From contig WARW01000003.1 in assembly GCA_013387215.1 (NCBI GenBank), positions 10,227-74,226 of the forward strand: 64,000 bases of DNA, read 5' to 3'. Shown here in pieces: positions 25,024 through 63,933 of this stretch. The notes beneath the pieces were generated by a model. That model had not been told where the DNA came from. It did no database searches and saw only the letters and a list, made by a program, of their open reading frames with translations. The position numbers were made by a program, and so were the translations under genes. Position 1 is the stretch's first letter; each line of letters begins with the position of its first letter. This stretch comes from Patescibacteria group bacterium (GTDB taxonomy: Bacteria; Patescibacteriota; Microgenomatia; UBA12405).

Positions 25024-25068
25024 TAGGTGGTATATTAAACTGATAATTAAAAGTAATAGGCTGTTTTA

Positions 25069-26613
25069 ATGCTCAAAAGAAAATATCAAAAAATTATAAT
25101 CGGAGCGGGATTTATTTTGTTGATTATATTTGGGCTAATAGGACTTTTTAAACGAACAAACAAATTGCCATTTAAAGCCTGTACCAACTGCAACATTATA
25201 TTAATTGATATTGATATTTTAAGAGCTGATGAATTGCCTTGCTACGGATATTCCCGAAATACCACCCCAAACATTTGTAATTTTGCGAAAAAGGGTATGA
25301 TTTTTAATGACAACTATTCTCCATCCTATTGGACTATGCCTAGTATGTTTTCCACAATAACGTCTCTTTATCCAACTTTCCACCGAATCCAAATGAATTA
25401 CACTGAAGCTTTGTCGCCTAAAATTCCAACCCTTGCAGAAACTTTACACAAACAAGGCTACCGAACAATCTATATTGGCCCGGAAGACGACATGTTAAAA
25501 CACAATAATGGCGGCTTACGCGGTTATGATTTAGTGACTCAAGAACCGATTGAAAAAGTGGTAAGCGAATTGTCGAAAAGTTCTCAACCATGGTTTGTGC
25601 ATTACTATAATAGTGATTTGCATGCCCCATATTTATTTAATGAAAAACCTCAATTGATTGATAATCTTCCCGCCCCTAAAAATTTTCCAATTACTTATTT
25701 AGATTTCAGTATTCTTCTAAATAAATATTTAAAAGAACATTACAAAGAAATATTCAAACAGAAAGCTATCGATGAATATAGAGCAATTATTTTAGGACCA
25801 GATAAAGCAGATGATATTAGTGTAACTACTCTTTTTAACAATATTAGAGGCGATAAGAAAATAATGAATGATTATTTATTTGATGCCTGGGTGCCAATAT
25901 TAAACACTTATCTTGGTTCTTTTGATAAAAATAATGCCGATAATGTGGCATATTTACGCATGATATATGATACTAAACTTAAGATAATAGACGATAAGTT
26001 GGGAGCGCTTTTTCAAGAGTTGGATTCAGAAGCACTATCTAAAAACACCATAACAGCAATTTCGTCAGACCACGGAGAAGCGTTTGGAGAACATGGAACT
26101 TTTTCACATGAGGTTAACCATTTCACTGAACTATATTACACACCTTTAATAATCAAGGCTCCACAATTTTCAGGAAAAATAATTAATGAAACCAGCAGCA
26201 ACATTGATATTTTCCCGACTTTTTTAGACTTAACCGGCAGCGAAAAAATTAATAATCAGCAAGGCAAATCACTAGTTTCTTATATGAATAATGAAAATAA
26301 AAGTTTAGAGGGCTTTAGTGTCAGTGAATGTTCGGAAGGAATATTGCTGCAAAATAAAAAATGGTTGTATTTTTTATCAAATGAGGTTTCAGAATTTAAT
26401 AAATCGGAACTTTACGACAGGAAAAATGATCCATTAGAAAAAAATAATGTGGTTGGAAAGAATCCAGAATTAGCTAGATCACTTTACCGACAGGCTGATT
26501 TGTTCCGATCCTATGGCAAAATTGAATATAAAAAAGAAGAGATACCAATTAGTGAGCAAATTAAGTTGGATCCAGAAAAGATCGAACGTCTTAAAAAAGA
26601 AGGCTATTTTTAA
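25069..26613 (+). CDS. Sulfatase-fold ectoenzyme paralogue 2
   Basis: Same motif set as paralogue 1 (CTNCNI, SYWTMPS, SDHGEAFGEHG, ERLKKEGYF). Confidence 0.8.
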   Translation: MLKRKYQKIIIGAGFILLIIFGLIGLFKRTNKLPFKACTNCNIILIDIDILRADELPCYGYSRNTTPNICNFAKKGMIFNDNYSPSYWTMPSMFSTITSLYPTFHRIQMNYTEALSPKIPTLAETLHKQGYRTIYIGPEDDMLKHNNGGLRGYDLVTQEPIEKVVSELSKSSQPWFVHYYNSDLHAPYLFNEKPQLIDNLPAPKNFPITYLDFSILLNKYLKEHYKEIFKQKAIDEYRAIILGPDKADDISVTTLFNNIRGDKKIMNDYLFDAWVPILNTYLGSFDKNNADNVAYLRMIYDTKLKIIDDKLGALFQELDSEALSKNTITAISSDHGEAFGEHGTFSHEVNHFTELYYTPLIIKAPQFSGKIINETSSNIDIFPTFLDLTGSEKINNQQGKSLVSYMNNENKSLEGFSVSECSEGILLQNKKWLYFLSNEVSEFNKSELYDRKNDPLEKNNVVGKNPELARSLYRQADLFRSYGKIEYKKEEIPISEQIKLDPEKIERLKKEGYF

Positions 26614-26654
26614 TTAGGTTAATATATAAATAATATATTGAATAAATAAATTAC

Positions 26655-28196
26655 ATGAAGATTCTTTTTTTTAGAGAAAAAAAATACCGCAAGATTATTG
26701 TGTTAGTTGGTATAGCATTAATAATTGGGTTAGTACTTGCATGGAAAAGATTGCCTGAAAAAAAGTGTGAACACTGCAATATTGTAATGGTAGATATTGA
26801 TGTCTTAAGAGCTGATGAGTTGCCTTGTTATGGATATTCCCGAAACACCACTCCCAATATTTGCCAGTTTGCCAAAAAGGCGACTATTTTTAAAGATAAT
26901 TATTCGACTTCATATTGGACTTTACCTAGTATGTTTTCAACAATTACCTCTATGCTACCCACCTTTCATAAGGTGAGAACTGAATTTATCAACAAACTGT
27001 CCCCTGATACAAAAACACTAGCCGAAGTTTTACATAGCCAGGGATATCGAACAGTATATATTGGCGACGGCCAGAATCCTGCTTTATTAACCAAAGATAA
27101 CGGAGGCTTGAGAGGTTACGATATTGTGACAAAAGAACCGATCGAAAAAGTAATTGCAGATCTTTCAAAAAGCTCACAGCCATGGTTTATCCACTATTAT
27201 TTAGTTGATTTACATATGCCTTATTTATTACCAGAAAATGTGAAACCAATGGAAGATCTGCCAGCTCCAAAAAATTTGCCAATAAACCAAACCGATTTTG
27301 ACCGCATGTTAAATACCTATTTAAAAAAGCACTATAAACAAATATTTAATGAAAAAGCGATTGGAAAATACGGCTCGGTTATTTTAGCTCCAGATAAAGC
27401 AGATGATACCAGTGTGACTAAACTTTTCAACGATTTAAGATGGACTAGTAAAAGCATGACTGAATATTTTATTGACAGCTGGAAGCCTATTTTTAATTCA
27501 TATATGGATTCATTTGATAAGAATAATCCCAATGATGTGGCATATATTAGAATGATGTACGATACAAAATTAAAACTGGCTGACGAGCAACTACAATCTC
27601 TTTTTATAAAATTAGAGACAAAACCATTTTCTGAAAATACGATCTCGATAATTATGTCAGATCATGGAGAAGCGTTTGGAGAACATGGAACTTTTTCCCA
27701 TGACAATAATAGTTATACGGAACTTTATCACACGCCGTTAATAATTCGGGCACCTGGACTGCCTGCTAAAATTGTGGACCAAACTTCAAGCAACCTAGAT
27801 ATTTTTCCAACAGTTTTAGACTTAAATGAAATAAAAAAATTAGACAGTTTTCAGGGAAAATCATTAGTGGACAGTGTCAATAAAAAAACAGAAACTAAAT
27901 CATTTAGTCTAAGCGAATATTCTGATGGTGTAATTTTACAAAACCATGACTGGCTGTATTTCTTACCATTTTGGGTTGATAAGTTTGAAAACTCAATGTT
28001 GTTTGATAGAAATAAAGATCCTAAGGAAAAAAATAATGCAGCAAAACAGAATTTAGAGTTAACTCACTTTCTTTATAAACAAGCTGATTTATTGAGATCT
28101 TATAATGGAATTATTTATAAGCCAGAGGAAATTCCAAGCGATATTAAATTAAATCCTGAAAAAATAGAGCGTCTTAAAAAAGAAGGCTATTTTTAA
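26655..28196 (+). CDS. Sulfatase-fold ectoenzyme paralogue 3
   Basis: CEHCNI, SYWTLPS, SDHGEAFGEHG, ERLKKEGYF. Confidence 0.8.
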   Translation: MKILFFREKKYRKIIVLVGIALIIGLVLAWKRLPEKKCEHCNIVMVDIDVLRADELPCYGYSRNTTPNICQFAKKATIFKDNYSTSYWTLPSMFSTITSMLPTFHKVRTEFINKLSPDTKTLAEVLHSQGYRTVYIGDGQNPALLTKDNGGLRGYDIVTKEPIEKVIADLSKSSQPWFIHYYLVDLHMPYLLPENVKPMEDLPAPKNLPINQTDFDRMLNTYLKKHYKQIFNEKAIGKYGSVILAPDKADDTSVTKLFNDLRWTSKSMTEYFIDSWKPIFNSYMDSFDKNNPNDVAYIRMMYDTKLKLADEQLQSLFIKLETKPFSENTISIIMSDHGEAFGEHGTFSHDNNSYTELYHTPLIIRAPGLPAKIVDQTSSNLDIFPTVLDLNEIKKLDSFQGKSLVDSVNKKTETKSFSLSEYSDGVILQNHDWLYFLPFWVDKFENSMLFDRNKDPKEKNNAAKQNLELTHFLYKQADLLRSYNGIIYKPEEIPSDIKLNPEKIERLKKEGYF

Positions 28197-28209
28197 ATAA
28201 ATTTGAAAG

Positions 28210-29727
28210 ATGGATAAAAAAATAAGAAATGTTTTATTGGTTTTGTTAATTTTTGTCGTGGGAACGGCAGTATTTGCATTAATAAAGACTAGGACAAAGA
28301 AAACCTGTGATCATTGCAATATTGTGATAATGGATATTGATATTTTAAGAGCTGATGAATTGCCCTGTTACGGATATTCCAGAAATACGACCCCAAATAT
28401 TTGCCAGTTTGCCAAAAAGGCAACTGTTTTTAAGGATAATTATTCAACTTCTGTTTTAACACTACCAGATATGTTTTCGATAATTACATCTCTTTATCCA
28501 ACTTTTCACCATGTGAACACAGCAACAATCGATAAACTTTCAGCAAACATCCCTACTTTGACTGAGATATTGAAAAAAGAAGGCTACAGGACAGTTTTTA
28601 TTGGAGATAGTGAATATTCTGGAACAATAAATAATCAAAACAATGGGCTAAGAGGCTTTGATATGGTGACACAAGAACCGATTGAAAAGGTAATGGAAGA
28701 ATTATCAAAAAGTTCTCAACCATGGTTTATATATTATTACTCAGGCGACTTACATATGCCTTATTTACTGCCGAAAAACACAAAACCGATGGAAAATATG
28801 CCGGCTCCAAAAAACTTACCGATAAACCAAACTGATTTTGATAAACGGTTAAATATTTATTTAAAAAATCACTACAAAGAGGTTTTTAATAAAAAAGCCA
28901 TTAAAGAATATTCTTCAATAATATTATCGCCAGATAAACCAGCAACTGAACTGTTTTATTCCTTAAAAAGTGACAATGAAAAGATGAAAGAATACTTAAT
29001 CGATGTGTGGAAACCTGAGTTTAACGTGTATATGGAATCATTTGATCAAAATAATTCTTCAGAGGTAAGTTATGTCCGAATGATTTATGATACAAAGTTA
29101 AATTTAGTTGATAATAAACTTGAAAAGGTGCTTAAAAAACTGGACACAAAAGAATCAATAAAAAATACGATTACTTTAATTTCATCAAACCACGGAGAAA
29201 GCTTTGGAGAACATGGAAATTTTTCCCATAATTTTAGTCCTCACTCAGAACTTTATTACACTCCATTAATAATTAAAGCGCCACAACTTAAGGCAAAACA
29301 AATCCAAAATACTTCAAGTAATATGGATATCCTACCCACAATTTTGGATTTAACTGGAATAAAAAAGTTAGACAGTTTTCAAGGAAACTCATTGATCGCT
29401 AGTATTAATCAAAAAGAAAACTTAGAAAATTTTGCCATGAGTGAATATTGGGGAAATATAATTTTACAAAATAAAAAATGGCTATATTTTTTACCAGCAG
29501 AAGCTAAATACATTGAGCAATCAATGCTTTTTAATAAAGAGAATGATAAAGATGAAAATACCAATGTGTCGATGCAAAATACAGAACTAGTAAAGATGCT
29601 TTACAAAAGGGCGGATTTGCTACGTTCTTATAGTGGAATTAATTATAAAATAGAAACTATTCCTACTAATGAAATAAAAATAGATCCTGAAAAAATTAAG
29701 AGGATTCAAAAAGAAGGATATTTTTAA
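28210..29727 (+). CDS. Sulfatase-fold ectoenzyme paralogue 4 (variant metal-ligand motif SNHGE)
   Basis: CDHCNI, SVLTLPD, SSNHGESFGEHG (Asn where the other copies have Asp) and KRIQKEGYF. Confidence 0.75.
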   Translation: MDKKIRNVLLVLLIFVVGTAVFALIKTRTKKTCDHCNIVIMDIDILRADELPCYGYSRNTTPNICQFAKKATVFKDNYSTSVLTLPDMFSIITSLYPTFHHVNTATIDKLSANIPTLTEILKKEGYRTVFIGDSEYSGTINNQNNGLRGFDMVTQEPIEKVMEELSKSSQPWFIYYYSGDLHMPYLLPKNTKPMENMPAPKNLPINQTDFDKRLNIYLKNHYKEVFNKKAIKEYSSIILSPDKPATELFYSLKSDNEKMKEYLIDVWKPEFNVYMESFDQNNSSEVSYVRMIYDTKLNLVDNKLEKVLKKLDTKESIKNTITLISSNHGESFGEHGNFSHNFSPHSELYYTPLIIKAPQLKAKQIQNTSSNMDILPTILDLTGIKKLDSFQGNSLIASINQKENLENFAMSEYWGNIILQNKKWLYFLPAEAKYIEQSMLFNKENDKDENTNVSMQNTELVKMLYKRADLLRSYSGINYKIETIPTNEIKIDPEKIKRIQKEGYF

Positions 29728-31292
29728 TGAAAGGCTTTTTAAGTAGAAAAAAACTTTTGTTGCTAGCATTATTGATTTTATTGTCGATAGTAATTGGTTT
29801 TGGATCGTGGACTTTTTATAAAAAAACAGAAAATAAGTCCGAAAAAAAGTGCGAGAATTGCAACATAATGCTTATTGATATTGATATTTTAAGAGGTGAT
29901 GAATTATCCTGTTTGGGATATTCCCGAAATACCACCCCAAACATTTGTGAATTTGCCAAAAATGGAGCTGTTTTTAAGGATAATTATTCGACTTCATATT
30001 GGACTCTTCCAAGTATATTTTCAACCATGACTTCTTTGTATCCGACTTTTCATGGGATGCAAAATGCAGGCAAGGATATTCTCTCTCCAAACATTACAAC
30101 TTTGGCTGAGGTGTTACATAAAAAAGGATATATGACGGTTATGGTAAACGGAAATAAAGATACAATGCAAATGCTGTTTGGCGATAATGAGGGTTTGAGA
30201 GGCTTTGAAATGGTTACAGCTGATCCGGTTGAAAAAGTTATAGATGACTTATCAAAAGACAATAGACCTTGGTTTATTTATTACTATAACTCAGAGCTGC
30301 ACTTTCCATATTTATTGCCAGAAAACACAAAACCGATGGAAGATTTGCCAGCTCCAAAAAATTTACCAATAAACCAAACTGATTTTGATACTTTACTAAA
30401 TAAATATTTAAAGACTCATTATACAGAAATATTTAAGCCAAAGATAATTGATAAGTACGGTTCGATTATTTTAGGGTCAAATAAAGAAGATGATATGGGT
30501 ATGGTGAAAATGTTTAATACTTTAAAAGCGGATCCTTCAAAAGTAAGCGAATATTTTATTAATGACTGGAATGCAAATTACCAAACTTACATGGAGTCGT
30601 TTGATCAAAATAATCCATCTGACGTTAAATATGTGCGAATGCTTTACGATACAAAATTAAAATTACTTGATAATAAAATGGGAAGTGTTTTACAAAAATT
30701 AAATTCGAAACAGCTTTCAGAAAATACAATCACAGTTATTACTTCAGACCATGGAGAAAATTTTGGAGAACATGGTTTTTTTACCCATATTGCCGATTTT
30801 CATTCCGAAGTGTTTTATATTCCATTAATTATTAAATCACCCAACATTTTACCGACAACAATCGAGCAAACAACAAGTAATATTGACATATTCCCTACTC
30901 TTTTAGATTTAACTGGCATCAATAGCCCGGGCGGACTACAAGGGATTTCTTTAGTTCCGTATATTAATAATCAGCACACAGAAAAACAATCATTTGCTAT
31001 GAGTGAATATTGGGGAAATGTGATTTTAGAGAATCATGATTGGCTGTATTTTTTACCTAAAGATGAGCAAGGTGTAGTCAAACCCACGTTCTATGACAGA
31101 ATTAAAGATCCGGCAGAAAAAGAAAATGTCATAGATAAATATCCTGAGATGGTAAATTCCCTTTATAAACAAGCCAGCCTGCTTCGCTCTTATAATGTTT
31201 TCTATGAAAATAAACCAATAGTAAAACCTGATGTAATCAAAAACATTGATAAAGTAAAATTAGATCGATTAAGGAAAGAAGGTTATTTTTAA
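29727..31292 (+). CDS. Sulfatase-fold ectoenzyme paralogue 5
   Basis: CENCNI, SYWTLPS, SDHGENFGEHG, DRLRKEGYF. Its start codon overlaps the stop of paralogue 4 (TAATG). Confidence 0.8.
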   Translation: MKGFLSRKKLLLLALLILLSIVIGFGSWTFYKKTENKSEKKCENCNIMLIDIDILRGDELSCLGYSRNTTPNICEFAKNGAVFKDNYSTSYWTLPSIFSTMTSLYPTFHGMQNAGKDILSPNITTLAEVLHKKGYMTVMVNGNKDTMQMLFGDNEGLRGFEMVTADPVEKVIDDLSKDNRPWFIYYYNSELHFPYLLPENTKPMEDLPAPKNLPINQTDFDTLLNKYLKTHYTEIFKPKIIDKYGSIILGSNKEDDMGMVKMFNTLKADPSKVSEYFINDWNANYQTYMESFDQNNPSDVKYVRMLYDTKLKLLDNKMGSVLQKLNSKQLSENTITVITSDHGENFGEHGFFTHIADFHSEVFYIPLIIKSPNILPTTIEQTTSNIDIFPTLLDLTGINSPGGLQGISLVPYINNQHTEKQSFAMSEYWGNVILENHDWLYFLPKDEQGVVKPTFYDRIKDPAEKENVIDKYPEMVNSLYKQASLLRSYNVFYENKPIVKPDVIKNIDKVKLDRLRKEGYF

Positions 31293-31298
31293 AAACAG

Positions 31299-32831
31299 AT
31301 GAAAAAAAAGATAAGTTTATTATTAATTGGATTAATGGTTTTTTTTACAATCGCTGCTTTTTTAATAAAAAAAGAAGTTATTAATAAACCTAAAATCTGC
31401 AAGCATTGCAATATCATGCTTATTGATGTGGATGTATTGAGAGGAGATGAATTGCCCTGCTATGGATATTCCCGAAACACCACCCCAAACATTTGTGAAT
31501 TTGCCAAAAATGGAGCTGTTTTTAAGGATAATTATTCGAACTCAATAATGACGCTGCCAAGTATGTTTTCCACTATCACTTCGCTTTATTTAACTTTTCA
31601 TAAAGTAGAAGTAAGTTTTGCTGATAGACTTTCGATAAAAATACCAACTTTAGCAGAGACATTACAAAAAGAAGGATATAGAACTGTATTTATAGGCAAA
31701 AGCGATGACCCTTCCACACTAAACCAAGAAAATGGAGGTTTACGAGGTTATGATTTAGTGACTCAAGATTCAATCGATAAGGTTGTGGACGATTTATCAA
31801 AAAGTTCTCAACCTTGGTTTGTGCACTACTATAATTCAGATTTACATATGCCCTATTTATTGTATGATGGCATGAAACCAATGGAAAATTTGCCAGCTCC
31901 GAAAAATATGCCAATCAGTTATTCGGATTTCGATAAACTGTTAAATACTTATTTAAAAAAACATTCAACTGAAATATTTAATAAAAAAGCAATTGAGGAA
32001 TATTCATCAACAATATTGGCACCAGATAAAGAAAACGATGTGAGCGTGACCCAGCTTTTTTATACCCTTCGCAATGATCCTAATAAAATGAAAAAATATT
32101 TAATTGATGGCTGGAAACCGATTTTTGATTCTTATATGGGATCGTTTGATAAAAATAATGAAAAAGATTTGGCTTATTTAAGGATGATGTATGATTCTAA
32201 TCTTAATTTGGTGGACAAAAAGTTGGAGCCAGTTTTGAATAAATTAAAATCAAAATTATTAGCAAAAAACACTATAAGTATATTTATGTCAGACCATGGC
32301 GAAGCTTTTGGTGAACACGGAACTTTTACTCACGACTACAACCATCACACAGAGCTATTTTATACACCATTAATAATTAAAAGTCCTAGTTTTTCAGGAA
32401 AAGTGATTGACCAAACTACAAGTAATATCGATATTTTTCCAACTATTCTCGAACTTGCAGGAATTAGAGACCCAGGTGTTTTACAAGGACAATCGTTGGT
32501 TCCGCATATGAAGGGAGTGGCCGAAAATTCAAGACCATTTGCCATAAGTGAATATTACAATGGCACGGTTTTACAAAACCATAACTGGTTTTATTATTTA
32601 CTGAACAGTGAAAATATTGAAAATTCGATACTTTATGACAAAATAAATGATCCTTTGGAAAAGGATAATGTATCTTTAAAACATCCAGACTTAACAATGA
32701 ATCTTTTCAAACAAGCAGATATTTTGCGTGTATATAATAGAAATTATAATAAGGAAGAGATTCTAAGATCCGAAAAGACTGGATTAGATCAGACAAAAAT
32801 AAAAAGGATTCAAAAAGAAGGATATTTTTAA
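31299..32831 (+). CDS. Sulfatase-fold ectoenzyme paralogue 6
   Basis: CKHCNI, SIMTLPS, SDHGEAFGEHG, KRIQKEGYF. Confidence 0.8.
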   Translation: MKKKISLLLIGLMVFFTIAAFLIKKEVINKPKICKHCNIMLIDVDVLRGDELPCYGYSRNTTPNICEFAKNGAVFKDNYSNSIMTLPSMFSTITSLYLTFHKVEVSFADRLSIKIPTLAETLQKEGYRTVFIGKSDDPSTLNQENGGLRGYDLVTQDSIDKVVDDLSKSSQPWFVHYYNSDLHMPYLLYDGMKPMENLPAPKNMPISYSDFDKLLNTYLKKHSTEIFNKKAIEEYSSTILAPDKENDVSVTQLFYTLRNDPNKMKKYLIDGWKPIFDSYMGSFDKNNEKDLAYLRMMYDSNLNLVDKKLEPVLNKLKSKLLAKNTISIFMSDHGEAFGEHGTFTHDYNHHTELFYTPLIIKSPSFSGKVIDQTTSNIDIFPTILELAGIRDPGVLQGQSLVPHMKGVAENSRPFAISEYYNGTVLQNHNWFYYLLNSENIENSILYDKINDPLEKDNVSLKHPDLTMNLFKQADILRVYNRNYNKEEILRSEKTGLDQTKIKRIQKEGYF

Positions 32832-32838
32832 AAAATAA

Positions 32839-34227
32839 ATGAAAAAAAATTATTTTTATATAGTTTTGGCAATTTTTAGCGGATTAATGATGTTCCCCCA
32901 ATTGATGATTAAGTACCCTTCTTTAATTGATGATGGAGTTAATTTTTTAACAGTAAAAAACAATAATTTTTTTCAAATATTTTGGCACCAACTATTTATT
33001 GATGAAAGAACAAGACCATTACAACTGATTTTTAGAAAAATACTTTTTGAAATTTGGGGATTTAATATATCGGGGAATTTTTTGGCTTACACCTTATTAC
33101 TTTTTGGAGTTGGGGTTATGGTTTGGAAAATTTTGGAAGGCATATTTAATGACAATAAAATAAAATGGTTAAGCCTTTTACTGTTTACTTTACCAGGAGT
33201 TTATGCGAATTTTTATCGTTTAGGCACAGATGAAACTATACAATTATTTTCAATTTTGGTAGTTATTGCCTTAGTAATCAGAAAGAAGTGGAAATGGGGC
33301 ATGATTGTGATGTTAATAAGTTTATTAACGAAGGAAACTTCTATTTTATTTTTGATGGCTCTTTTAGTGTTTTATTTGGTAAACAAACGAAAAAAAGAAG
33401 CGGTTTGGGGTGTGATTGGAGCTGGATTATTTATTTTTTTAGTCTGTTTTAAATATCAGTTTTATGAATCGGCAACATATATCCGAACTGGAGAATTATC
33501 TTGGAAACATATAATGTATAGTTTTACCTCTCACCCAGTCTTGGCAATACTGGTGATTGTTTTGCCAATTTTACTTTGGATAAAAAGAAAGGCTTTGGGA
33601 GAAAGAAATGCCTTATTAATGGCCTTATTAATTAGCAGTTGTATTGGAGAAATTGTAATTTGGGATGTAAGACAGGAATACTACTGGTTAATAATAGAAG
33701 TATTAATCTCGATTGGAATTGCGATGGCTCTTAGTCAAATAAAATATTGGCCGTTAATGCTGGTAATGTTGGCGTACTTAAATTTTAATAACACCATGTA
33801 TGAGATTAAGTATTGGCACGGAAAATATCTGAAAGACGAAGTCTTGGTTGAATATTTACTCAACAAAAATTGGAAAAATACAAATGTTTATATAGACGAT
33901 AATGATTTTGAAGAAAACGATAAGATACGCTATTATATTAGTTCCTGGAACACTGGGGCAAAAAGTATTTATCCAGATACTGATATTTGGCTAGTAAATC
34001 AAACTAAAAAAGATAGAAATTATTTTATCGAAACAGCCAAAAATTCAATTAAGCTATTTAACGAAAATAAAACCAATAGCGTTTTGATTTCAAATAATGA
34101 AGAAGATTTATATAAAATGGGAAAAGAACTTTCAGTTGATTTTCAGCAAGCAGCTAGAAAAATATGCGGAAAGTCATGGTTGCTTTCTAATCCCGATTGT
34201 TTTTTGATTATTGAAAAGAATCAATAA
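32839..34227 (+). CDS. Polytopic membrane protein, GT-C glycosyltransferase-like
   Basis: 462 aa with more than 10 TM helices, an acidic first loop (LIDDGVNFL) and a soluble C-terminal domain. It starts 7 nt after the sulfatase-like array. Confidence 0.45.
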   Translation: MKKNYFYIVLAIFSGLMMFPQLMIKYPSLIDDGVNFLTVKNNNFFQIFWHQLFIDERTRPLQLIFRKILFEIWGFNISGNFLAYTLLLFGVGVMVWKILEGIFNDNKIKWLSLLLFTLPGVYANFYRLGTDETIQLFSILVVIALVIRKKWKWGMIVMLISLLTKETSILFLMALLVFYLVNKRKKEAVWGVIGAGLFIFLVCFKYQFYESATYIRTGELSWKHIMYSFTSHPVLAILVIVLPILLWIKRKALGERNALLMALLISSCIGEIVIWDVRQEYYWLIIEVLISIGIAMALSQIKYWPLMLVMLAYLNFNNTMYEIKYWHGKYLKDEVLVEYLLNKNWKNTNVYIDDNDFEENDKIRYYISSWNTGAKSIYPDTDIWLVNQTKKDRNYFIETAKNSIKLFNENKTNSVLISNNEEDLYKMGKELSVDFQQAARKICGKSWLLSNPDCFLIIEKNQ

Positions 34228-40728: not shown

Positions 40729-41688
40729 ATGGGAAATATGCCAGAGACAAAAGAAATTTTTGACACAATTATTGTGGGATCAGGTCCAGCCGGATTAACA
40801 GCTGCAATTTACAATATTAGAGCAGCTTTAAAAACCGTGGTAATTGCGGGAAATCAGCCAGGCGGACAATTAACCATTACCACTTATGTTGATAATTATC
40901 CTGGTTTTCCAACCGGAATCGGCGGAGTTAAATTGATGATGGATATGCAGGCTCAGGTGAAAAATTTAGGCGGTGAAATTCGCCAAGGATTAGTAAAAGA
41001 AATTCAAAAGAAAGACGGTGTGTTTGAAGTATGTTTTAATGATGAGTCAATTCTTAAAGCCAAATCGGTGATTGTGACAACCGGCGCCAGCGCTAAATGG
41101 TTGGGACTTCCAAACGAAAAAGAATTAGTAGGTAGAGGTGTCAGCGGATGTGCAACTTGTGATGGAATGTTTTTTAAAGATAAAATTGTGGCGGTGGTTG
41201 GCGGTGGAGACACGGCTTGCGAAGATGCAGTGTTTTTAACAAGATTTGCCAATAAAGTTATTTTGATTCATCGACGAGACAAATTCCGAGCTGCACCAAT
41301 GGAGCAAAGCAAAGTGTTTGAAAATAATAAAATTGAAACTTTATGGAATACTGAAGTTGAAGAGATTATAGGAAAAGATAAACTAGAAGCCATTAAAATA
41401 ATTAATAATCAAACCAAAGAAGAAAAAGAAATTCAAATTAATGGACTATTTATGGCTATAGGCCATGATCCGGCTACTCAATTTATTAAAGATTTGGTTG
41501 AATTAAAAGAAACTGGGCAAGTTGTTGTGGGTAAAAATCAAAACTATCCAACCATGACTAACGTTGAAGGTTTATTTGCAGCTGGTGATTGTGCTGATGA
41601 TGTTTACAGACAAGCAATAGTGGCAGCGGGAAATGGCTGCAAAGCAGCCATTGATGCTCAACATTGGCTGGAAAATCAAGAAGCTTAA
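40729..41688 (+). CDS. trxB: Thioredoxin-disulfide reductase
   Basis: GSGPAG FAD motif, redox centre CATCDG, NADPH motif GGGDTACEDA, C-terminal GDC. Confidence 0.9.
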   Translation: MGNMPETKEIFDTIIVGSGPAGLTAAIYNIRAALKTVVIAGNQPGGQLTITTYVDNYPGFPTGIGGVKLMMDMQAQVKNLGGEIRQGLVKEIQKKDGVFEVCFNDESILKAKSVIVTTGASAKWLGLPNEKELVGRGVSGCATCDGMFFKDKIVAVVGGGDTACEDAVFLTRFANKVILIHRRDKFRAAPMEQSKVFENNKIETLWNTEVEEIIGKDKLEAIKIINNQTKEEKEIQINGLFMAIGHDPATQFIKDLVELKETGQVVVGKNQNYPTMTNVEGLFAAGDCADDVYRQAIVAAGNGCKAAIDAQHWLENQEA

Positions 41689-42893
41689 ATCAATTTTTTG
41701 ATTGATTTAATAAAGTTGTCTTTAGAAAAACAATCGGCTCGATTAATACAATTTTGAGATATTTTTTGAGAATCTTTTGGAGTTTTAGTAAGTTTTTCCA
41801 ATTCTTGGATTGCCCTAGCACAAGATTCCGGAGTTAATTTATCAAATAAAACTCCGGTTTTACCATCAATAACAGTTTCAGCAGTTCCACCACTTTTAAA
41901 ACCAACAACAGGACAACCAAAAGACATGGCCTCTACCGGAACCATGCCAAAATCTTCATTGTCGGAACAAAACAGAAAAGCTTTGGCTTGGAAATATAGT
42001 TTTTCTTTTTGTTCTTGATTTACTTCACCTAAAAATTCAATGGTGGGGCCAGAGATATTTTTGAGTTCATCCATAAACCCAGCAAAATCACGGCCAAATA
42101 TTTTTAATTTAAGATTCAATTGGTTGCAGGCTTTAATGGCAACATCATAACGCTTAGCTCTAGCTAGTCTGCCGCCTGCTAAAAAGTATGACTCAGATAA
42201 AATTTGGCGGTGCTCGCTACCTTCGGGCTCGACTTCGTTTCGCGTTCGCTGTGCTCCTGAAATTTTATTCTTCGTATTAACGAGCTTCGCCATTTTTGGA
42301 ATTTCTATAGGAGGATTTATAACTATACTGTTTTTACGGTAAAATTTTTCAATGCGGGCGGCAGTGGTTTGAGAATTGGCAATAAATTGATCGACGTTTT
42401 GGGCAAATCTAAAATCTAAAAATCTTAAAAAGTGATTTAAGAATTGAACTATAAAATAAATAAATTTGTTTTTGGTTAAAACTCTGGCAGTGGGCAGACC
42501 ATATAAATAACGAGGCGGAGTGTGGCAATAACAAATTAATTTAGCTTGTTTTTTGTTTAAAGCATTTGGAAAATAGGCACCAGTGGCGGAACTGATAATC
42601 AAGTCGTAATCAGAAAAATCAAAAGAATAAAAAGCTAGCGGCGAAAATAAACGAAGCGGACTGATTATTTTTCTGGCAAAAGGTATAAATTTAAAAAAGC
42701 TTTGATGAATACGACCCGCCCATTTTTTTTGAAGACGATTTTGATGAGGACCTAGAAATTTTGGGCAATAAAGTGAAGTGTAAATCGGAGCATCGGGAAA
42801 AATATCGGAAAAAGTTTCTAGAACTGACTCGGCTCCCCCAAATTCTTTTATATAATCATGAACTAGGGCTATTTTGAGTTTAGTTTGGGTCAT
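41685..42893 (-). CDS. Family-4 glycosyltransferase carrying an in-frame repeat-element segment
   Basis: GT-B C-terminal motif EDFGMVPVEAMSFGCPVV and LAGGRLARAKRYD. The inter-domain segment KISGAQRTRNEVEPEGSEHRQIL is encoded by the GC-core palindromic element. Confidence 0.8.
   Translation of the reverse strand: MTQTKLKIALVHDYIKEFGGAESVLETFSDIFPDAPIYTSLYCPKFLGPHQNRLQKKWAGRIHQSFFKFIPFARKIISPLRLFSPLAFYSFDFSDYDLIISSATGAYFPNALNKKQAKLICYCHTPPRYLYGLPTARVLTKNKFIYFIVQFLNHFLRFLDFRFAQNVDQFIANSQTTAARIEKFYRKNSIVINPPIEIPKMAKLVNTKNKISGAQRTRNEVEPEGSEHRQILSESYFLAGGRLARAKRYDVAIKACNQLNLKLKIFGRDFAGFMDELKNISGPTIEFLGEVNQEQKEKLYFQAKAFLFCSDNEDFGMVPVEAMSFGCPVVGFKSGGTAETVIDGKTGVLFDKLTPESCARAIQELEKLTKTPKDSQKISQNCINRADCFSKDNFIKSIKKLI
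42198..42267. repeat. Palindromic GC-core element, intragenic copy (G)
   Basis: AT-rich inverted arms AAAATTT/AAATTTT flank GGCGGTGCTCGCTACCTTCGGGCTCGACTTCGTTTCGCGTTCGCTGTGCTCC. It shares GTGCTCG..CCTTCG with copy A, and CGTTTCGC..GTGCTCC with copy C. Confidence 0.55.
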
Positions 42894-51897: not shown

Positions 51898-52326
51898 ATG
51901 AATCTTTTTCAGTTCGTAAAGAAATATCAATTGATTTTAATTTTAAGTTTTATAGCAATAAGTTTGTTTATAATTAAATCGGTTTACGGATATAAAGATT
52001 CTGGAGTGAAACCAGAAATTTCTATCTCGCCTACTCCATCGGCTTCAGCTGAAATTTCACCAACAAATATCCCAACAATTCCTGTTTCCAGCTCAAGTTC
52101 TAAATTAAAAACTTCTATTATTAAAGAAGTATCAAAAAGTGCAACAAATAAGTTAAAATTACCCTACTCTTCAAAAAATTTTATTGTTCAAGAATTTGAT
52201 TCGGTTAATACTTTTAAAGTAAAACTATTGAATCCTGATAAGGCAGTTGTTATACAGGAAATAATAAAATGGCTGGAGAAGAATGGATTAAATCCAGTAG
52301 ATTACCAAGTAGTTTTTGTTAATTAA
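51898..52326 (+). CDS. Membrane-anchored hypothetical protein with a Ser/Pro/Thr linker
   Basis: 142 aa with an N-terminal TM helix and a layout similar to the preceding gene. Confidence 0.45.
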   Translation: MNLFQFVKKYQLILILSFIAISLFIIKSVYGYKDSGVKPEISISPTPSASAEISPTNIPTIPVSSSSSKLKTSIIKEVSKSATNKLKLPYSSKNFIVQEFDSVNTFKVKLLNPDKAVVIQEIIKWLEKNGLNPVDYQVVFVN

Positions 52327-53441
52327 TCTTGCAAACGGACAGGCATGATGATGTGGGTGAATTGAGGATCAGATTGGTCATGAAAACAGCCAGGAGTTAA
52401 TGGTTCATTTAATTCAATTAAAATTTCTTGGCTTTTACAAACATTTAGGAAATCAGATAAGAATTTATAATTAAAAGCAATTTCTAAAGTTTCCCCTTCT
52501 ATCTTAGATTCAATTGAAGCTTTGTTTTGACCAACTTGAGGAGCATTGGCGGTAATATCGATGGAATTAGTTTTAATATTTAATTTAATAACATTAGCTG
52601 ATTCTTTAGCAAAAACTGAAGCAATTTTGACTGCTTGAGTAAATTCATCTTTATTTAAAAATAATTTAGTAGTGAAAGATTCAGGAATAATTCTTTTATA
52701 TTCCGGATAATCCCCTTCAATAAGACGGGAAACCAACTCTACGTCGTCTAGAACGAATACAACTTGGTGACCATCAGGTGTTAGCCCTATTTTTATTTTC
52801 TTGGCGTTTTTAGCAAGTTTAGTGACTTCGATTAAACTTTTTGCCGGAATTAAGAAAGTAATTTGGTCAGAATTTAAATTTATTGGATTGACGAGTTTAA
52901 TACTTTTAAAAGAAAGTCTAAAACCATCGGTGGCAGCTAAGGTTAAATTATCTTCAGAAAATTGACAAAGAATAGCAGTTAAAGCTGGTCGAGTGTCATC
53001 GGTGGCAGCGGCAAAGGCTAGTTGGGTAATAGCTTGATTTAAAATAGACAAATCGATTTCAAAGGAAGTGTTTGGATCGATACTTGGAAATTCAGGAAAA
53101 TCAGCAGCACTAACAGTGGTAAAACTTGATTCAGATTTAGCAGAAGAAAGAGTAAGTAAATTATTCTCATTTAAAGTGAGGTCGACTTTACCTGAGGAGA
53201 GATAAGAAACAAATTCTGTAATCTCTTTGGCTGGGATAGTTATACTTCCCTCTTCTTCAATTTTGGCACCAATCCAATAATTAATACTCAACTCTAAATT
53301 AGTAGCTGAGAGTTTAAGACGACCATTATCAGTAGATAAGAGAATGTTATTAAGAATAGGTAGTTGTGACTTAGAAGAAACGAACCGAGACACATTACTT
53401 AGGGCAGTTGTAAGATTCTCTTGTAGAAGGGAAAGCTTCAT
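52323..53441 (-). CDS. dnaN: DNA polymerase III beta sliding clamp
   Basis: 372 aa, three-domain clamp pattern (MKLSLLQENL..., ILNNILL, ATDGFRLS), located downstream of dnaA. Confidence 0.9.
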   Translation of the reverse strand: MKLSLLQENLTTALSNVSRFVSSKSQLPILNNILLSTDNGRLKLSATNLELSINYWIGAKIEEEGSITIPAKEITEFVSYLSSGKVDLTLNENNLLTLSSAKSESSFTTVSAADFPEFPSIDPNTSFEIDLSILNQAITQLAFAAATDDTRPALTAILCQFSEDNLTLAATDGFRLSFKSIKLVNPINLNSDQITFLIPAKSLIEVTKLAKNAKKIKIGLTPDGHQVVFVLDDVELVSRLIEGDYPEYKRIIPESFTTKLFLNKDEFTQAVKIASVFAKESANVIKLNIKTNSIDITANAPQVGQNKASIESKIEGETLEIAFNYKFLSDFLNVCKSQEILIELNEPLTPGCFHDQSDPQFTHIIMPVRLQD

Positions 53442-53755: not shown

Positions 53756-55117
53756 TTAGAAAGCACTTTTAATTTGGTTGATAAGTTGTCTGAGTTGTGG
53801 ATTAGTGGAAAAATCAGTGCTGACTTTGTCACGGGCGTGCATAATACTGGTATGGTCGCGGCCACCAAGCAAATGCCCTACTTCTTCAAGGGGTAAATTT
53901 ATTTCTGTTAATAAAAGATAAGCAGTGATATGGCGGGCGGAAACTAATTCTTTTTTACGGCTTTTTCCGCAAAGATCACTAGTTTTTATATTAAAATGTT
54001 TAGCACAGATAGAAATTATATGGCGAGGAGAAACCTTTTCAGAGCTGACAGAAAAAATCGAACTAGAATTAGGATTAGTTTGAGGGTGTAAATAATTTTC
54101 AATAAAATCCACATCAATCATACTGACTCGTTGGGCCATGGATTGAACAACAACCTCTTGGAGTTTACCTTCAATTTCACGAATATTTGCAGGGATATTA
54201 TTAGCAAGAACTTGAACGGCTTCAGGAGTTATTTGAACGCCTTTTTCTTCGACTTTTTGATTAATAATAGCGACCCGCATTTCATAGTCAGGAAGCTGAA
54301 TATCGACGGTTAATCCCCCCATAAACCGGGAAACTAAACGATCTTCAAGGCGATCGATTTCACTAGGCTTGCGGTCGGAAGTTAAAATTACCTGTTTTCC
54401 GGCCATATGAAGAGCATTGAAAGTGTGGAAAAATTCTTCTTGAATATATTCTTTGCCAGCAATAAATTGAATATCATCAACTAAAATACAATCAAGTTTT
54501 CGATATTTATCTTTAAACTGATTCATGTTTTTAGATTTGAGAGCGCTTATCAGTTCATTACTAAAGGTTTCGGCGGGAAAATACTTAATTTTCATGTCAG
54601 GAGAATGCTTTAGAAGTTCATGGCCAATAGCCTGCATTAAATGGGTTTTACCAACACCGACTCCACCCCAAATAAAGAATGGGTTGTAAGAAAGACCAGG
54701 ATTTTTAACAATACCTTGAGCGGCAGCATAGGCAAAATTATTACTATTGCCGACAATTAAGGTTTCAAAAGTATATTTAGGATGAAGACAAGAGAAATCG
54801 ATAGTGTTTTTTTGAGGAGAAAAGGAGAAAAGCGGGGCGGAAGTGCTGTCTACTATAGAATCCCCTTTTGGGGCTTCCTGGATAATAAAATTTAAAACAT
54901 TACTGGATTTAGTTTGGTTATCAAGGGCACTTTTAAAAAGATCGTAATAGCGTTTATGATTAATATCAACTAAATAAGAATTAGGACAAGCAATAATAGC
55001 AATATTATTTTCAATACTGATTAATTGAGTTTTGGCAACAAAAGTTTGGAAGACAGCGGGAGCTAGAACTATTTTAAGTTCCTCTTGTGTGTTTTTCCAA
55101 ATTCTTATCAAATCCAT
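53756..55117 (-). CDS. dnaA: Chromosomal replication initiator DnaA
   Basis: Walker A GGVGVGKTHLMQAIG, Walker B ILVDDIQF and the C-terminal DNA-binding domain (ARHITAYLL, DHTSIMHA). Confidence 0.95.
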   Translation of the reverse strand: MDLIRIWKNTQEELKIVLAPAVFQTFVAKTQLISIENNIAIIACPNSYLVDINHKRYYDLFKSALDNQTKSSNVLNFIIQEAPKGDSIVDSTSAPLFSFSPQKNTIDFSCLHPKYTFETLIVGNSNNFAYAAAQGIVKNPGLSYNPFFIWGGVGVGKTHLMQAIGHELLKHSPDMKIKYFPAETFSNELISALKSKNMNQFKDKYRKLDCILVDDIQFIAGKEYIQEEFFHTFNALHMAGKQVILTSDRKPSEIDRLEDRLVSRFMGGLTVDIQLPDYEMRVAIINQKVEEKGVQITPEAVQVLANNIPANIREIEGKLQEVVVQSMAQRVSMIDVDFIENYLHPQTNPNSSSIFSVSSEKVSPRHIISICAKHFNIKTSDLCGKSRKKELVSARHITAYLLLTEINLPLEEVGHLLGGRDHTSIMHARDKVSTDFSTNPQLRQLINQIKSAF

Positions 55118-55196
55118 AATTATTTTTGTTTTATAAAGGCATTAATATGCCTATTTTTAGGCAGGAAATAAATTAACTTCGGGGCAGAGATTTAAG

Positions 55197-55228
55197 TTAT
55201 CCACATTATAATAAAGTAGTTTTCCACA
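55197..55228. promoter_or_regulatory. DnaA boxes upstream of dnaA: TTATCCACA (55197-55205) and TTTTCCACA (55220-55228)
   Basis: One perfect consensus box and one single-mismatch box in the dnaA/rpmH divergent spacer. Confidence 0.75.
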
Positions 55229-55323
55229 AAAGAAAAGATGTCAGTTTAGGGATATTAAAGTCATTTTAATACAAATTCAGATTAATTACAAAAGTGGCGG
55301 TTGTTTATGATAAAATACTTTCT

Positions 55324-55461
55324 ATGTCTAAGCAAACTTTTCAACCAAAAACTAAAAAAAGAACCAGAGTTCACGGATTTTTAAAAAGAATGATGTCTCA
55401 TGACGGCCGAAACGTTTTAAAAAGAAGAAGAGCTAAAGGTAGAGCAAAACTAACGGTATAA
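55324..55461 (+). CDS. rpmH: 50S ribosomal protein L34
   Basis: A 45-aa ORF not in the track: [45 protein letters not shown]. It occupies the canonical position before rnpA. Confidence 0.95.
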
Positions 55462-55468
55462 TTAGTGA

Positions 55469-55810
55469 ATGCTAAAGAAAATTAACCGGATTAAAAGCAA
55501 AAAAGATTTCGGGGAGATTAAAAATCGAGGGGTAATGTATCATTCCCCTCTTTTTAGTTTTGTATATATAAAATCAGAATTAAACGATCTAACTCATACT
55601 CAATTCGGTTTTATAATTTCTAAAAAGATTTCCAAAAAAGCTGTAGATAGAAATAGAATTAAAAGATTATTATCCTCCAGCCTGCAAGATAACTTAGAAA
55701 AATTTAAAAATAATTTAAAGGGAGTATTTTTAGTAAAGAGAGTGATTTTAGAAAAAGACCAAACGGAAATTAATCAGGAAATTGAAAAACTAGCAGATAG
55801 AATACAATGA
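55469..55810 (+). CDS. rnpA: Ribonuclease P protein component
   Basis: 113 aa and basic, with the KKAVDRNRIKRLL (RNR) motif. It follows rpmH. Confidence 0.9.
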   Translation: MLKKINRIKSKKDFGEIKNRGVMYHSPLFSFVYIKSELNDLTHTQFGFIISKKISKKAVDRNRIKRLLSSSLQDNLEKFKNNLKGVFLVKRVILEKDQTEINQEIEKLADRIQ

Positions 55811-56010
55811 AAAAAATAGTTTTAAAAATACTTGTCTTTTATAAAAAATACCTGTCTTACGGGTATAATTGTAGATTTATCCCAACATGTTCGGAATATA
55901 CATATGAAGCCGTGGAAAAATATGGTGTAATTAAAGGAATGGGTTTAGGAATAAGAAGAATATTAAAATGTCACCCATGGGGTAAAAAAGGAATAGATTT
56001 GTTAAAATAG
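55807..56010 (+). CDS. yidD: Membrane protein insertion efficiency factor YidD
   Basis: CRFIPTCSEYTYEAVEKYG and an ATGA overlap with rnpA. Confidence 0.9.
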   Translation: MKKIVLKILVFYKKYLSYGYNCRFIPTCSEYTYEAVEKYGVIKGMGLGIRRILKCHPWGKKGIDLLK

Positions 56011-56016
56011 TAACTT

Positions 56017-56796
56017 ATGAATATTTTTATTGCACCGTTTGTGAACGCCCTATTTGGAGCCTACTATTTAGTAGGAAACTTAGGTTGGGCAATTATTTTG
56101 GTAACCATTTTAATTAAATTAATTTTGATTCCATTGGTTATTCCCAGTTTAAAAACCGCTCAAAAACAACGATTATTACAGCCAAAATTAAGTAAATTAA
56201 AAGAAAAATACGGCAATGATAAACAAGCTATGGCTAAGGCGCAAATGGATTTGTATAAGCAGGAAGGAATCAATCCAATGGCCGGATGTTTGCCCCAAAT
56301 ACTTCAAATCGCCGTATTACTTTTATTCTTCTCTGCTTTCAATATGGTGACTCAATATTCTGAGGGTAAAGGCAGTATGGATAATATTAATAATAATTTA
56401 ATTCAGAATTTTAAGATCAATCATGATTTTAAATTTGATGTGAACTTTTTTGGTTCGAATTTAACTCAAGTGCCTTCAAAGATTTTTTCACAAGGAATTA
56501 GTTTGAGTTTAGTTTTACCTTTAATCCTTTTATTGGGATCAGGTTTATTGCAATTTTGGAGTGCTAAATTAATGATGCCAGCTCCAAAAGCTGATGAAAA
56601 AATTGCTAAAGCAACTGCTGATAAAGAGGATGATATGATGGCGGCAATGAGAACCCAATCAACCTATCTTATGCCTTTAATGACAATTATTATTGGCTGG
56701 AATTTTTCATTAGGTTTATTGCTGTATTGGTTTGTTAATTCAGCGGCAATGATCGGTCAACAATTAATCTTTAATAAATTTTCAAAAAATAAATAG
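56017..56796 (+). CDS. yidC: Membrane insertase YidC (short form)
   Basis: KLILIPL, QPKLSKLKEKY, GINPMAGCLPQILQIAVLL and the C-terminal LLLYWFVNS. Confidence 0.9.
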   Translation: MNIFIAPFVNALFGAYYLVGNLGWAIILVTILIKLILIPLVIPSLKTAQKQRLLQPKLSKLKEKYGNDKQAMAKAQMDLYKQEGINPMAGCLPQILQIAVLLLFFSAFNMVTQYSEGKGSMDNINNNLIQNFKINHDFKFDVNFFGSNLTQVPSKIFSQGISLSLVLPLILLLGSGLLQFWSAKLMMPAPKADEKIAKATADKEDDMMAAMRTQSTYLMPLMTIIIGWNFSLGLLLYWFVNSAAMIGQQLIFNKFSKNK

Positions 56797-59805: not shown

Positions 59806-59813
59806 TGTTTTAT

Positions 59814-59892
59814 ATTTAGCTTTGTAATTTGCAGTGCTCGAGCCTTCGTAATATCCACTCAGATACTGCGCGCTTAAATAACAAAGCTAAAT
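59814..59892. repeat. Palindromic GC-core element copy A
   Basis: Arms ATTTAGCTTTGT / ACAAAGCTAAAT (12 bp, perfect) flank the core AATTTGCAGTGCTCGAGCCTTCGTAATATCCACTCAGATACTGCGCGCTTAAATA. Confidence 0.6.
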
Positions 59893-59904
59893 TTATTCCA
59901 TTTT

Positions 59905-59978
59905 TTTTAGATCGTGATTTGCGGTACTCACGCGTTCACTTTGTTCACATGATTCCGTTCCTAAATCACGACCTAAAA
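59905..59978. repeat. Palindromic GC-core element copy B
   Basis: Arms TTTTAGATCGTGATTT / AAATCACGACCTAAAA (15 of 16 complementary) flank the core GCGGTACTCACGCGTTCACTTTGTTCACATGATTCCGTTCCT. Confidence 0.6.
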
Positions 59979-60318
59979 TAATATACATTTGATATATTCC
60001 CCTAGCTAAAATAATGACGTTTTTACAACGTGAAAACCCCTAAAATCAGTACTGTGCTGACATTTTTTTGATAGAAAATTTTTTCTTTTCAAGATTCCCC
60101 TCTCGGAACCAGGTTCGATTTTGAAAAATACCATCTGAACTCGTTTGTATTTACATTAAAAATACTTACATATATCTATAATCACGTCATTACATTTTTT
60201 CACGTTACTCCTTATAATTAATTAGCTTGGTTATGACTATTTTTGGCAAGTAATAACCGCATAATAACCGATTTATTACCGTAAGAAAATAGTAAACATT
60301 TAAACTAAAATAAGTAGT

Positions 60319-63372: not shown

Positions 63373-63382
63373 ATTTTGTTTC

Positions 63383-63478
63383 GTTTTGAGATTTCCGGTG
63401 TCCTCTAAAAGGACTCGCTTCGCAGCGCTCACGCGTTTCGCTTCGCTCACATGATTGTGCTCCGTAGAATCTCAAAAC
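63383..63478. repeat. Palindromic GC-core element copy C
   Basis: Arms GTTTTGAGATT / AATCTCAAAAC (11 bp, perfect). The core shares CTCACGCGTT and TCACATGATT blocks with copy B. It lies 10 nt after the DUF4012 gene stop. Confidence 0.6.
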
Positions 63479-63545
63479 TTCACTTTATATCGTGCTAAAA
63501 ATTTCTTTTGCTTCGCCAGCATTATTTGATTGATAAAATAGGGAT

Positions 63546-63844: not shown

Positions 63845-63933
63845 AAGTAAATAAATTTTTGCTACGAATTTTTTTCTCCCTCAATGCGTTACCGCGTTGA
63901 AACTCGTAAAAAATTGTAGCCTTAAATTTACTT
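63845..63933. repeat. Palindromic GC-core element copy D (more divergent)
   Basis: Imperfect long arms AAGTAAAT..GCTACGAATTTTTT / AAAAAATTGTAGC..AAATTTACTT surround the core CTCCCTCAATGCGTTACCGCGTTGAAACTCG. It lies 5 nt after the RNHCP gene stop. Confidence 0.45.

Follow-up and report, generated by a model that had tools for sequence, protein, structure and literature searches.

The window analyzed here is the 64,000-nt stretch of contig WARW01000003.1 (assembly GCA_013387215.1, positions 10,227 to 74,226) from a Patescibacteria group bacterium; all coordinates are counted from its first letter. Its GC content is only 32.4%, and within a gene for a GT4-family glycosyltransferase on its minus strand lies a GC-rich palindromic element, designated copy G of repeat family 1. 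The gene and the parts of the element are located as follows; L numbers designate sequences other than the window.

41685..42893, minus strand: host gene, GT4-family glycosyltransferase of GT-B fold, 402 aa (Pfam domains, AlphaFold model and Foldseek matches).
42187..42277, minus strand: family-1 palindromic element, copy G, within the GT4 gene (covariance model R1, 81.2 bits; hidden Markov model (HMM) without window sequence, 32.1 bits, E 4e-9).
42206..42259, minus strand: GC-rich core of copy G, reading CAGGAGCACAGCGAACGCG...GAGCCCGAAGGTAGCGAGCACCGCC on the gene strand; type 1, as in L016, L025, L026 and L034.
42197..42205, no strand assigned: left AT-rich arm ATAAAATTT, pairing with 42260-42268; stem pairs covary among copies.
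42260..42268, no strand assigned: right AT-rich arm AAATTTTAT, a perfect 9-nt complement to 42197-42205.

The core of 54 nt, at 65% GC, is among the sharpest local GC peaks of the window, and with its AT-rich arms of 9-10 bp it makes copy G an imperfect palindrome on the GT4 gene strand. The initial annotation had reported a palindromic GC core with AT-rich arms at this place, and it is indeed there; the length of about 70 nt given for it proved too short, since the covariance-model extent spans 42187-42277 and includes conserved outer ends (GCGAAG...RAGC on the gene strand). Also as annotated, the minus strand reads through the element without a stop, as K210-ISGAQRTRNEVEPEGSEHRQI-L232, and the full extent corresponds to in-frame residues ~207-234, or ~28 codons. 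Pfam placed this insert between the two halves of the GT-B enzyme, that is, between Glyco_transf_4 (residues 18-196) and Glycos_transf_1 (residues 234-376). The AlphaFold model of the protein showed a GT-B fold (mean predicted local distance difference test score (pLDDT) 82.9, predicted template modelling score 0.80), with Foldseek matches to MshA, HepE, BshA and PimA, and its sole internal stretch with pLDDT below 50, residues 209-232, coincides with the insert. Copy G is thus predicted to yield a hydrophilic, disordered loop of 23-28 residues linking the two halves of the enzyme. Every GT4 orthologue that carries the element preserves the frame and lacks stops. At its 3' end, the GT4 gene overlaps a convergent thioredoxin-reductase-like gene (40729-41688, plus strand) by 4 nt (41685-41688); the same convergent layout with a longer overlap was seen in the closest relative, L321.

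The anatomy of family 1, derived from the DNA of 80 orthologous GT4 loci, is that of an element of ~85-110 bp in which conserved ends and T5 and A5 tracts accompany an AT-rich stem that varies between copies and a core rich in GC. Its layout on the gene strand is GCGAAG - variable 6-8-nt stem - T5 - CAG - GCGCRCAR ... CCGAAGG..GYGAGCAC - CTG - A5 - complementary stem - RAGC. The termini GCGAAG...RAGC are conserved yet pair over just 2 bp. Besides the type 1 cores listed above, type 2 cores were found in L001, L002, L042 and copy A of the window, and type 3 cores in L004 and copies B and C of the window. RNAalifold predicted a 22-bp interrupted helix with compensatory changes at 17 pairs and a conserved 3x2 internal loop (5' RCA / 3' GA) adjoining a C-G pair, and the core motif CCGAAGG...GYGAGCAC was invariant. 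Standard pairs made up 95.7% of the pair cells against 72% in shuffles, with 343 double-sided changes at 18 of the 22 pairs; since the alignment was fitted to the model, the 95.7% figure leans towards structure. When the 14 orthologous GT4 copies were taken alone, compensatory changes were present at 13 of 21 pairs.

The helix also showed a strand asymmetry: G·T pairs outnumbered A·C pairs by 82:14 in the GGAGCAC orientation, which suggests that one particular strand folds. Because the same bias was found in sense copies within open reading frames (ORFs; 24:5), antisense copies within ORFs (9:1) and intergenic copies (50:8), the folding strand appears to be set by the element and not by transcription of the host. 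A search of Rfam in the window and seven related loci gave no match at or above the gathering threshold, and its E-value mode returned just sub-threshold look-alikes of miRNA precursors. An origin of family 1 from tRNA was rejected, no tRNA being involved. An intrinsic terminator was likewise rejected for the intergenic copies, since in either orientation the T-run comes before the core and the A-run after it.

Three further copies were found in the window, all of them intergenic and on the minus strand.

59811..59894, minus strand: family-1 copy A, type 2 core (covariance model, 66.3 bits; independent HMM, 17.4 bits, E 1.7e-4).
59901..59981, minus strand: family-1 copy B, type 3 core, directly after copy A (covariance model, 61.5 bits, with copy B itself in the training set).
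63374..63485, minus strand: family-1 copy C, divergent and longer type 3 core with an extra hairpin (covariance model, 17 bits, E 0.07; copy C was left out of training).

Copy A begins 6 nt past the stop of a Polysacc_synt flippase gene (58588-59805, plus strand), in the opposite orientation to it, and L233 and L221 carry copies at what is apparently the same site, judged by gene order and ORF sizes. Copy B, which resembles the GT4-linker copy of L004, was a hairpin that also proved to be a member of family 1. Copy C begins immediately past the stop of a DUF4012 gene (60319-63372, plus strand), and copies in L221 and L266 lie just past an ORF of similar size, apparently the same site, judged likewise by gene order and ORF sizes. 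The sequence blocks that the initial annotation had described as common to the GT4 element and copies A and C were present.

The significance of this similarity was assessed with an HMM built from eight copies, all from other genomes, and then run on the window. Against a composition-matched null of 100 Markov-1 simulated windows, in which the best score was 6.7 bits, copies G and A reached 32.1 and 17.4 bits, respectively. Copies B and C have a common 28-29-nt gapped core, AATCATGTGA.C.AAG.GAA(.)CGCGTGAG, which occurred in 0 of 100 shuffles, the pattern having been picked post hoc. Covariance model R1, built from 11 copies with copy C excluded, detected the four copies G, A, B and C in the window and nothing else notable. 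The 8-mer GYGAGYAC alone was not over-represented in 1.37 Mb (40 observed, against ~77 in shuffles), and profile models were therefore used instead. A generic hairpin scan (10-nt arms, at most one mismatch, loop of at least 50% GC) returned the site of copy G, hairpins A, B and C, and four sites judged unrelated by eye. A long hairpin at 63852-63928, after a small ORF, has the same succession of T-run, GC core and A-run (GCTACGAATTTTTTT...AAAAAATTGTAGC) with a different core; it scored 9.7 bits with the family-1 model and may represent a further family.

Comparison of reading frames and codons revealed that what is conserved is the nucleic-acid hairpin and not the peptide. L001 and L002 contain the same type 2 core in two different frames, ARNIRGALPKGVSTEK and RAQHPRCNTEGREHGKK, with small indels in the arms restoring the frame, and each of the three frames is represented among the intragenic hosts (17, 4 and 7 copies). 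Between the window gene and L321, whose proteins are 75% identical, the element has 85% nucleotide identity and 75% identity at third codon positions, compared with 52-61% at third positions in the remaining gene. Identical residues were encoded by identical codons at 18 of 22 positions within the element and at 159 of 274 elsewhere, the former being a small sample.

Analysis of the 120 closest GT4 orthologues (63-75% identical; Candidatus Shapirobacteria where named) showed that protein length ranges from 367 to 421 aa and that this variation is confined to the linker, so that the residues in question are an insertion in a hypervariable region. By a rough classification of the linker peptides, ~40 orthologues carry a related insert (...GAQRTR..EPEGSEH.., ..GAQSSEV.AEGREH.., ..SARNIRG..PKGVSTEK..), ~26 a different one (..SPLSKGE.., ..SLSREDVDLSTGG..) and ~52 have short linkers. 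Linkers homologous to that of the window enzyme therefore do exist, which the initial annotation had named as a possible objection if their genomes were free of such repeats; they are, however, linkers that harbor a family-1 copy at the corresponding position. Accordingly, the insertion is not private to the window genome but common to many orthologues, and it must be old, not recent. In a crude neighbor-joining tree of GT4 with the linker removed, linkers with family 1, linkers with a second repeat unrelated to it (family 2) and empty linkers were interspersed; thus the GT4 linker is a permissive landing site used by different palindromic repeats, with no one sequence required. L016 (family 1) and L036 (family 2) have flanks ~90% identical by eye and unrelated linkers, L014 retains just a 3' remnant of a family-1 copy, and the core of L321 has partly decayed towards AT (GAGCAC to AAACAT).

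Family 2 (~45-55 nt; consensus TCTCCCTTGTCAAGGGGAGATGTC-variable hairpin-GACAGAGGGGTTT) is the more abundant dispersed repeat. It fills the GT4 linker in about a dozen species, and dozens of copies are found around GT4 in other genomes, in spacers and within ORFs of either strand. Many more copies exist than these examples:

L001: 4754-4800, 8952-8988, 9953-9994, 12568-12612, 14105-14146.
L002: 5266-5317, 5520-5566.
L013: 9946-9995, 10586-10631, 17092-17140.

Whatever the orientation of the host gene, 68 of 70 family-2 matches lie on the GT4-sense strand, a skew that hints at a replication-strand bias. No family-2 copy was present in the window, and the family had no Rfam match. The more distant Microgenomates GT4 sequences L045-L080 have palindrome-like linker peptides, such as SFPRRRESRMEWIPGQARNDK in L046, ENFRAHNAG...GANVHSENF in L069 and L073, and LASSVQL...ELNA in L068, L071 and L076, and the linker may thus have taken up further repeat families as well. 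L009 and L012 represent one more kind of linker, short and containing a small direct repeat, ATCTACGATC..ATCTACGATCGAC, with the peptide NNLRSNIYDRQN.

Family 1 is dispersed well beyond GT4. When metagenomes were scanned with a two-part pattern, 121 matches were obtained, of which 70 are true elements, located on contigs of 33-52% GC and each equipped with its own AT-rich stem, and ~51 are chance matches on contigs above 55% GC. Only eight of the 70 true elements lie in GT4. In 406 kb of metagenome loci the covariance model found 82 copies, up to three of them on one 3-kb contig, and clustering of the flanks resolved at least 22 sites. With the four window copies added, 39 of 86 copies lie within long ORFs, and the in-frame hosts belong to at least six unrelated Pfam families: a TrwB-type ATPase (coupling protein of type IV secretion systems), MurB, a RimK-type ATP-grasp protein, a radical-SAM protein, a 953-aa membrane protein and a second GT1 glycosyltransferase. 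In the latter (L212) the copy is located immediately before the Glycos_transf_1 domain, and in the TrwB-type ATPase the element is a clean insertion of ~31 aa relative to four homologues. Intergenic copies usually start 1-10 nt past a stop codon and fill the spacer. The copy in the MurB gene (L270, 2230-2360) is a composite, in which a type 1 5' half is followed by a complete type 2 element with its own arms in place of the type 1 3' half, which points to a resident copy having been inserted into or recombined with. Viral contigs scanned with CCGAAGGNNGYGAGCAC gave just chance matches in GC-rich phages and no element.

The orientation of copies was biased in opposite ways in ORFs and spacers. 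Within ORFs, 32 copies are in the sense orientation, with GGAGCAC on the coding strand, and seven antisense; by site, this amounts to six sense clusters and one mixed cluster, which holds the antisense copies. In spacers, copies are antisense to their neighbors by 29:6, or by 10:2 when counted by site. Stop codons were rejected as the cause of the sense bias in ORFs, the antisense orientation having at least as many open frames. Replication direction was also rejected, because the four window copies, all on the minus strand, straddle the dnaA/dnaN region, with copy G to its left and copies A-C to its right. This region comprises dnaN (52323-53441, minus strand), dnaA (53756-55117, minus strand) and a 900-bp non-coding gap (55117-56017) followed by yidC and jag (plus strand), and is probably the chromosomal replication origin.

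From these data, we consider it likely that copy G belongs to a dispersed, non-autonomous palindromic repeat that populates the compact, AT-rich genomes of Candidatus Shapirobacteria and related Microgenomates and is tolerated where it does no harm. An ancestor of a Shapirobacteria subclade gained a copy in the linker between the Rossmann-like halves of the GT-B enzyme, and the gene has kept it in frame since; in sister lineages the element has decayed, been deleted or been replaced by the second repeat family. Purifying selection would leave copies just at harmless places: some fill very short spacers past stop codons, and others, if their length and frame permit it, would sit in interdomain linkers or surface loops, being translated there as a hydrophilic disordered peptide. 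The strand reading GGAGCAC may fold as single-stranded DNA or RNA during copying or maintenance, with the copying presumably done by an enzyme supplied in trans. A function for the host need not be assumed.

Several observations weigh against this explanation. The 1.3 Mb of DNA around GT4 in 80 genomes yielded no family-1 copy beyond the GT4 linker, which holds a copy in eight of the loci, and the copy number per genome is thus probably modest. The orientation rules in ORFs and spacers are unaccounted for by stop-codon content. Pairing of copies by their flanks gave no clean pair, and hence neither a target-site duplication nor a filled/empty polymorphism; apparent empty sites were alignment artefacts or diverged spacers. 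No transposase turned up, no dedicated transposase screen of the window or loci having been made. Mobility is consequently deduced from the distribution of copies and not from observed events. Finally, copies persist at orthologous sites across species with compensatory stem changes in situ, behavior that is not obviously junk-like and allows for selection acting on the fold, or for a mechanism by which the palindrome corrects itself.

Two alternatives give the fold a role. Under one, which is conceivable but rather unlikely in our judgment, family 1 is a new class of structured, strand-specific element of CPR (candidate phyla radiation) bacteria and not inert junk. A dedicated protein would recognize its core in single-stranded DNA or RNA, carry out the copying and maintain the pairing of the stem, including in essential coding regions such as murB and over species-level divergence; the opposite orientation rules in ORFs and spacers would then reflect this machinery or use of the fold by the host. 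Unlikely as well is that the hairpin is a selected structured nucleic-acid module, such as a protein-binding site on RNA or single-stranded DNA, a signal for RNA processing or stability, or an interdomain translational pause. Such a module would fit the compensatory changes among orthologous GT4 copies, the internal loop and invariant motif, the greater synonymous-site identity within the element, the non-random orientation, and the occupation across species of three apparently identical sites (GT4 linker, flippase 3' end and DUF4012 3' end). It is difficult to reconcile with the short, element-free linkers of ~40% of the closest GT4 orthologues and the unrelated repeat in others, with the decaying core in the nearest relative, with the lack of a functional link among the hosts and the presence of copies both along and against the direction of transcription, with a G·T/A·C asymmetry that tracks the strand of the element and not the transcribed one, and with the lack of an Rfam family match.

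Far less probable is selection at the protein level, in which the 23-28 residues serve as a flexible linker or interaction peptide and the palindrome is incidental. The peptide is hydrophilic, predicted to be disordered and placed exactly at the interdomain hinge, and the frame encoding ...EGSEH... predominates (17 of 28 intragenic copies); however, orthologues and other hosts read the same core in more than one frame, identical cores occur in intergenic DNA, where the ...EGSEH... frame is closed in 45%, and the linker peptides of orthologues are unrelated, deriving from family 1, family 2 or neither. The idea that the hypervariable linker holds a GC-rich quasi-palindrome by chance, or that the feature stems from faulty assembly, is refuted: short inverted repeats are common in the AT-rich window (292 pairs) and the 8-mer is not enriched on its own, but the HMM and covariance-model E-values of 1e-4 to 1e-19 stand against the null maximum, and the same element recurs in dozens of independent assemblies.

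The closest parallel to the preferred explanation, a dispersed repeat tolerated where harmless, is found in Rickettsia. Rickettsia palindromic elements (RPEs) are palindromic repeats of ~150 bp, many of which lie in frame within unrelated genes, at sites that the protein fold can accommodate (PMC10969869). Like RPE-1 to RPE-10, family 1 is a dispersed hairpin repeat of the ~100-150 bp class in a small AT-rich genome, with a large fraction of copies in frame in unrelated housekeeping genes and the rest intergenic. RPE features were reportedly also described by Ogata et al. 2000, Science 290:347, and to our knowledge a transposase is known neither for RPEs nor for family 1. Family 1 differs in its CPR/Patescibacteria host, its shorter length (85-110 bp), its apparently lower copy number, its opposite orientation in ORFs and spacers, and its stem, which is variable and copy-specific next to a conserved core and termini. 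It shows multi-copy dispersal, a maintained hairpin and stop-free in-frame insertion in unrelated genes, as well as, for GT4 only, insertion at a fold-compatible position, namely the low-pLDDT loop between the GT-B domains. The orthologue, family and structure analyses thus support the suggestion in the initial annotation of an RPE-like repeat in a tolerant interdomain linker; family 1 appears to work like an RPE in its behavior, a likeness that does not place it in the Rickettsia sequence families.

Other small palindromes resemble family 1 less closely. [quoted passage not shown] Classical MITEs have terminal inverted repeats matching a parent insertion sequence and target-site duplications, neither of which was found for family 1, where no transposase screen was made. 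REP/REPIN elements, which are mobilized by RAYT (Y1 HUH) transposases (PMC3116915, PMC3733652), share with family 1 a hairpin under strand-specific constraints, REPs being acted on as single-stranded DNA, and an accumulation at the 3' ends of genes. REPs are, however, 20-40 nt long, extragenic and tagged with a terminal GTAG or CGTC, whereas family 1 measures 85-110 nt, is about half intragenic and lacks such a tag, GTAG being present only internally and only in type 1 cores. Family 1 was therefore rejected as a REP/REPIN on size, intragenic habit and terminal tag; no RAYT gene was identified, such genes not having been searched for. The very AT-rich yeast mitochondrial genome contains mobile GC-rich palindromic clusters of ~30-50 bp, some of them in frame in VAR1. 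These are similar to family 1 in the GC-rich palindrome and in-frame copies, and differ in residing in a eukaryotic organelle and in their unrelated sequence.

The papers searched contained no account of elements of this kind from CPR or Patescibacteria. In-frame palindromic repeats have hitherto been treated largely as a peculiarity of Rickettsia, and the same behavior is now seen in streamlined CPR genomes. The presence of at least two unrelated repeat families in CPR suggests that this is what generally becomes of selfish hairpin DNA where genomes are compact and AT-rich and protein loops are nearly the sole neutral places left. For annotation, such inserts make CPR proteins longer and more diverse and give rise to spurious linkers that pass for "novel" sequence; for protein evolution, they offer a ready supply of disordered linkers. 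They may also provide a lead, in an uncultured phylum, towards the enzyme acting on hairpins of this kind.

Elsewhere in the window, seven consecutive plus-strand ORFs of 462-521 aa at 23494-34227 form an apparent tandem array of paralogues.

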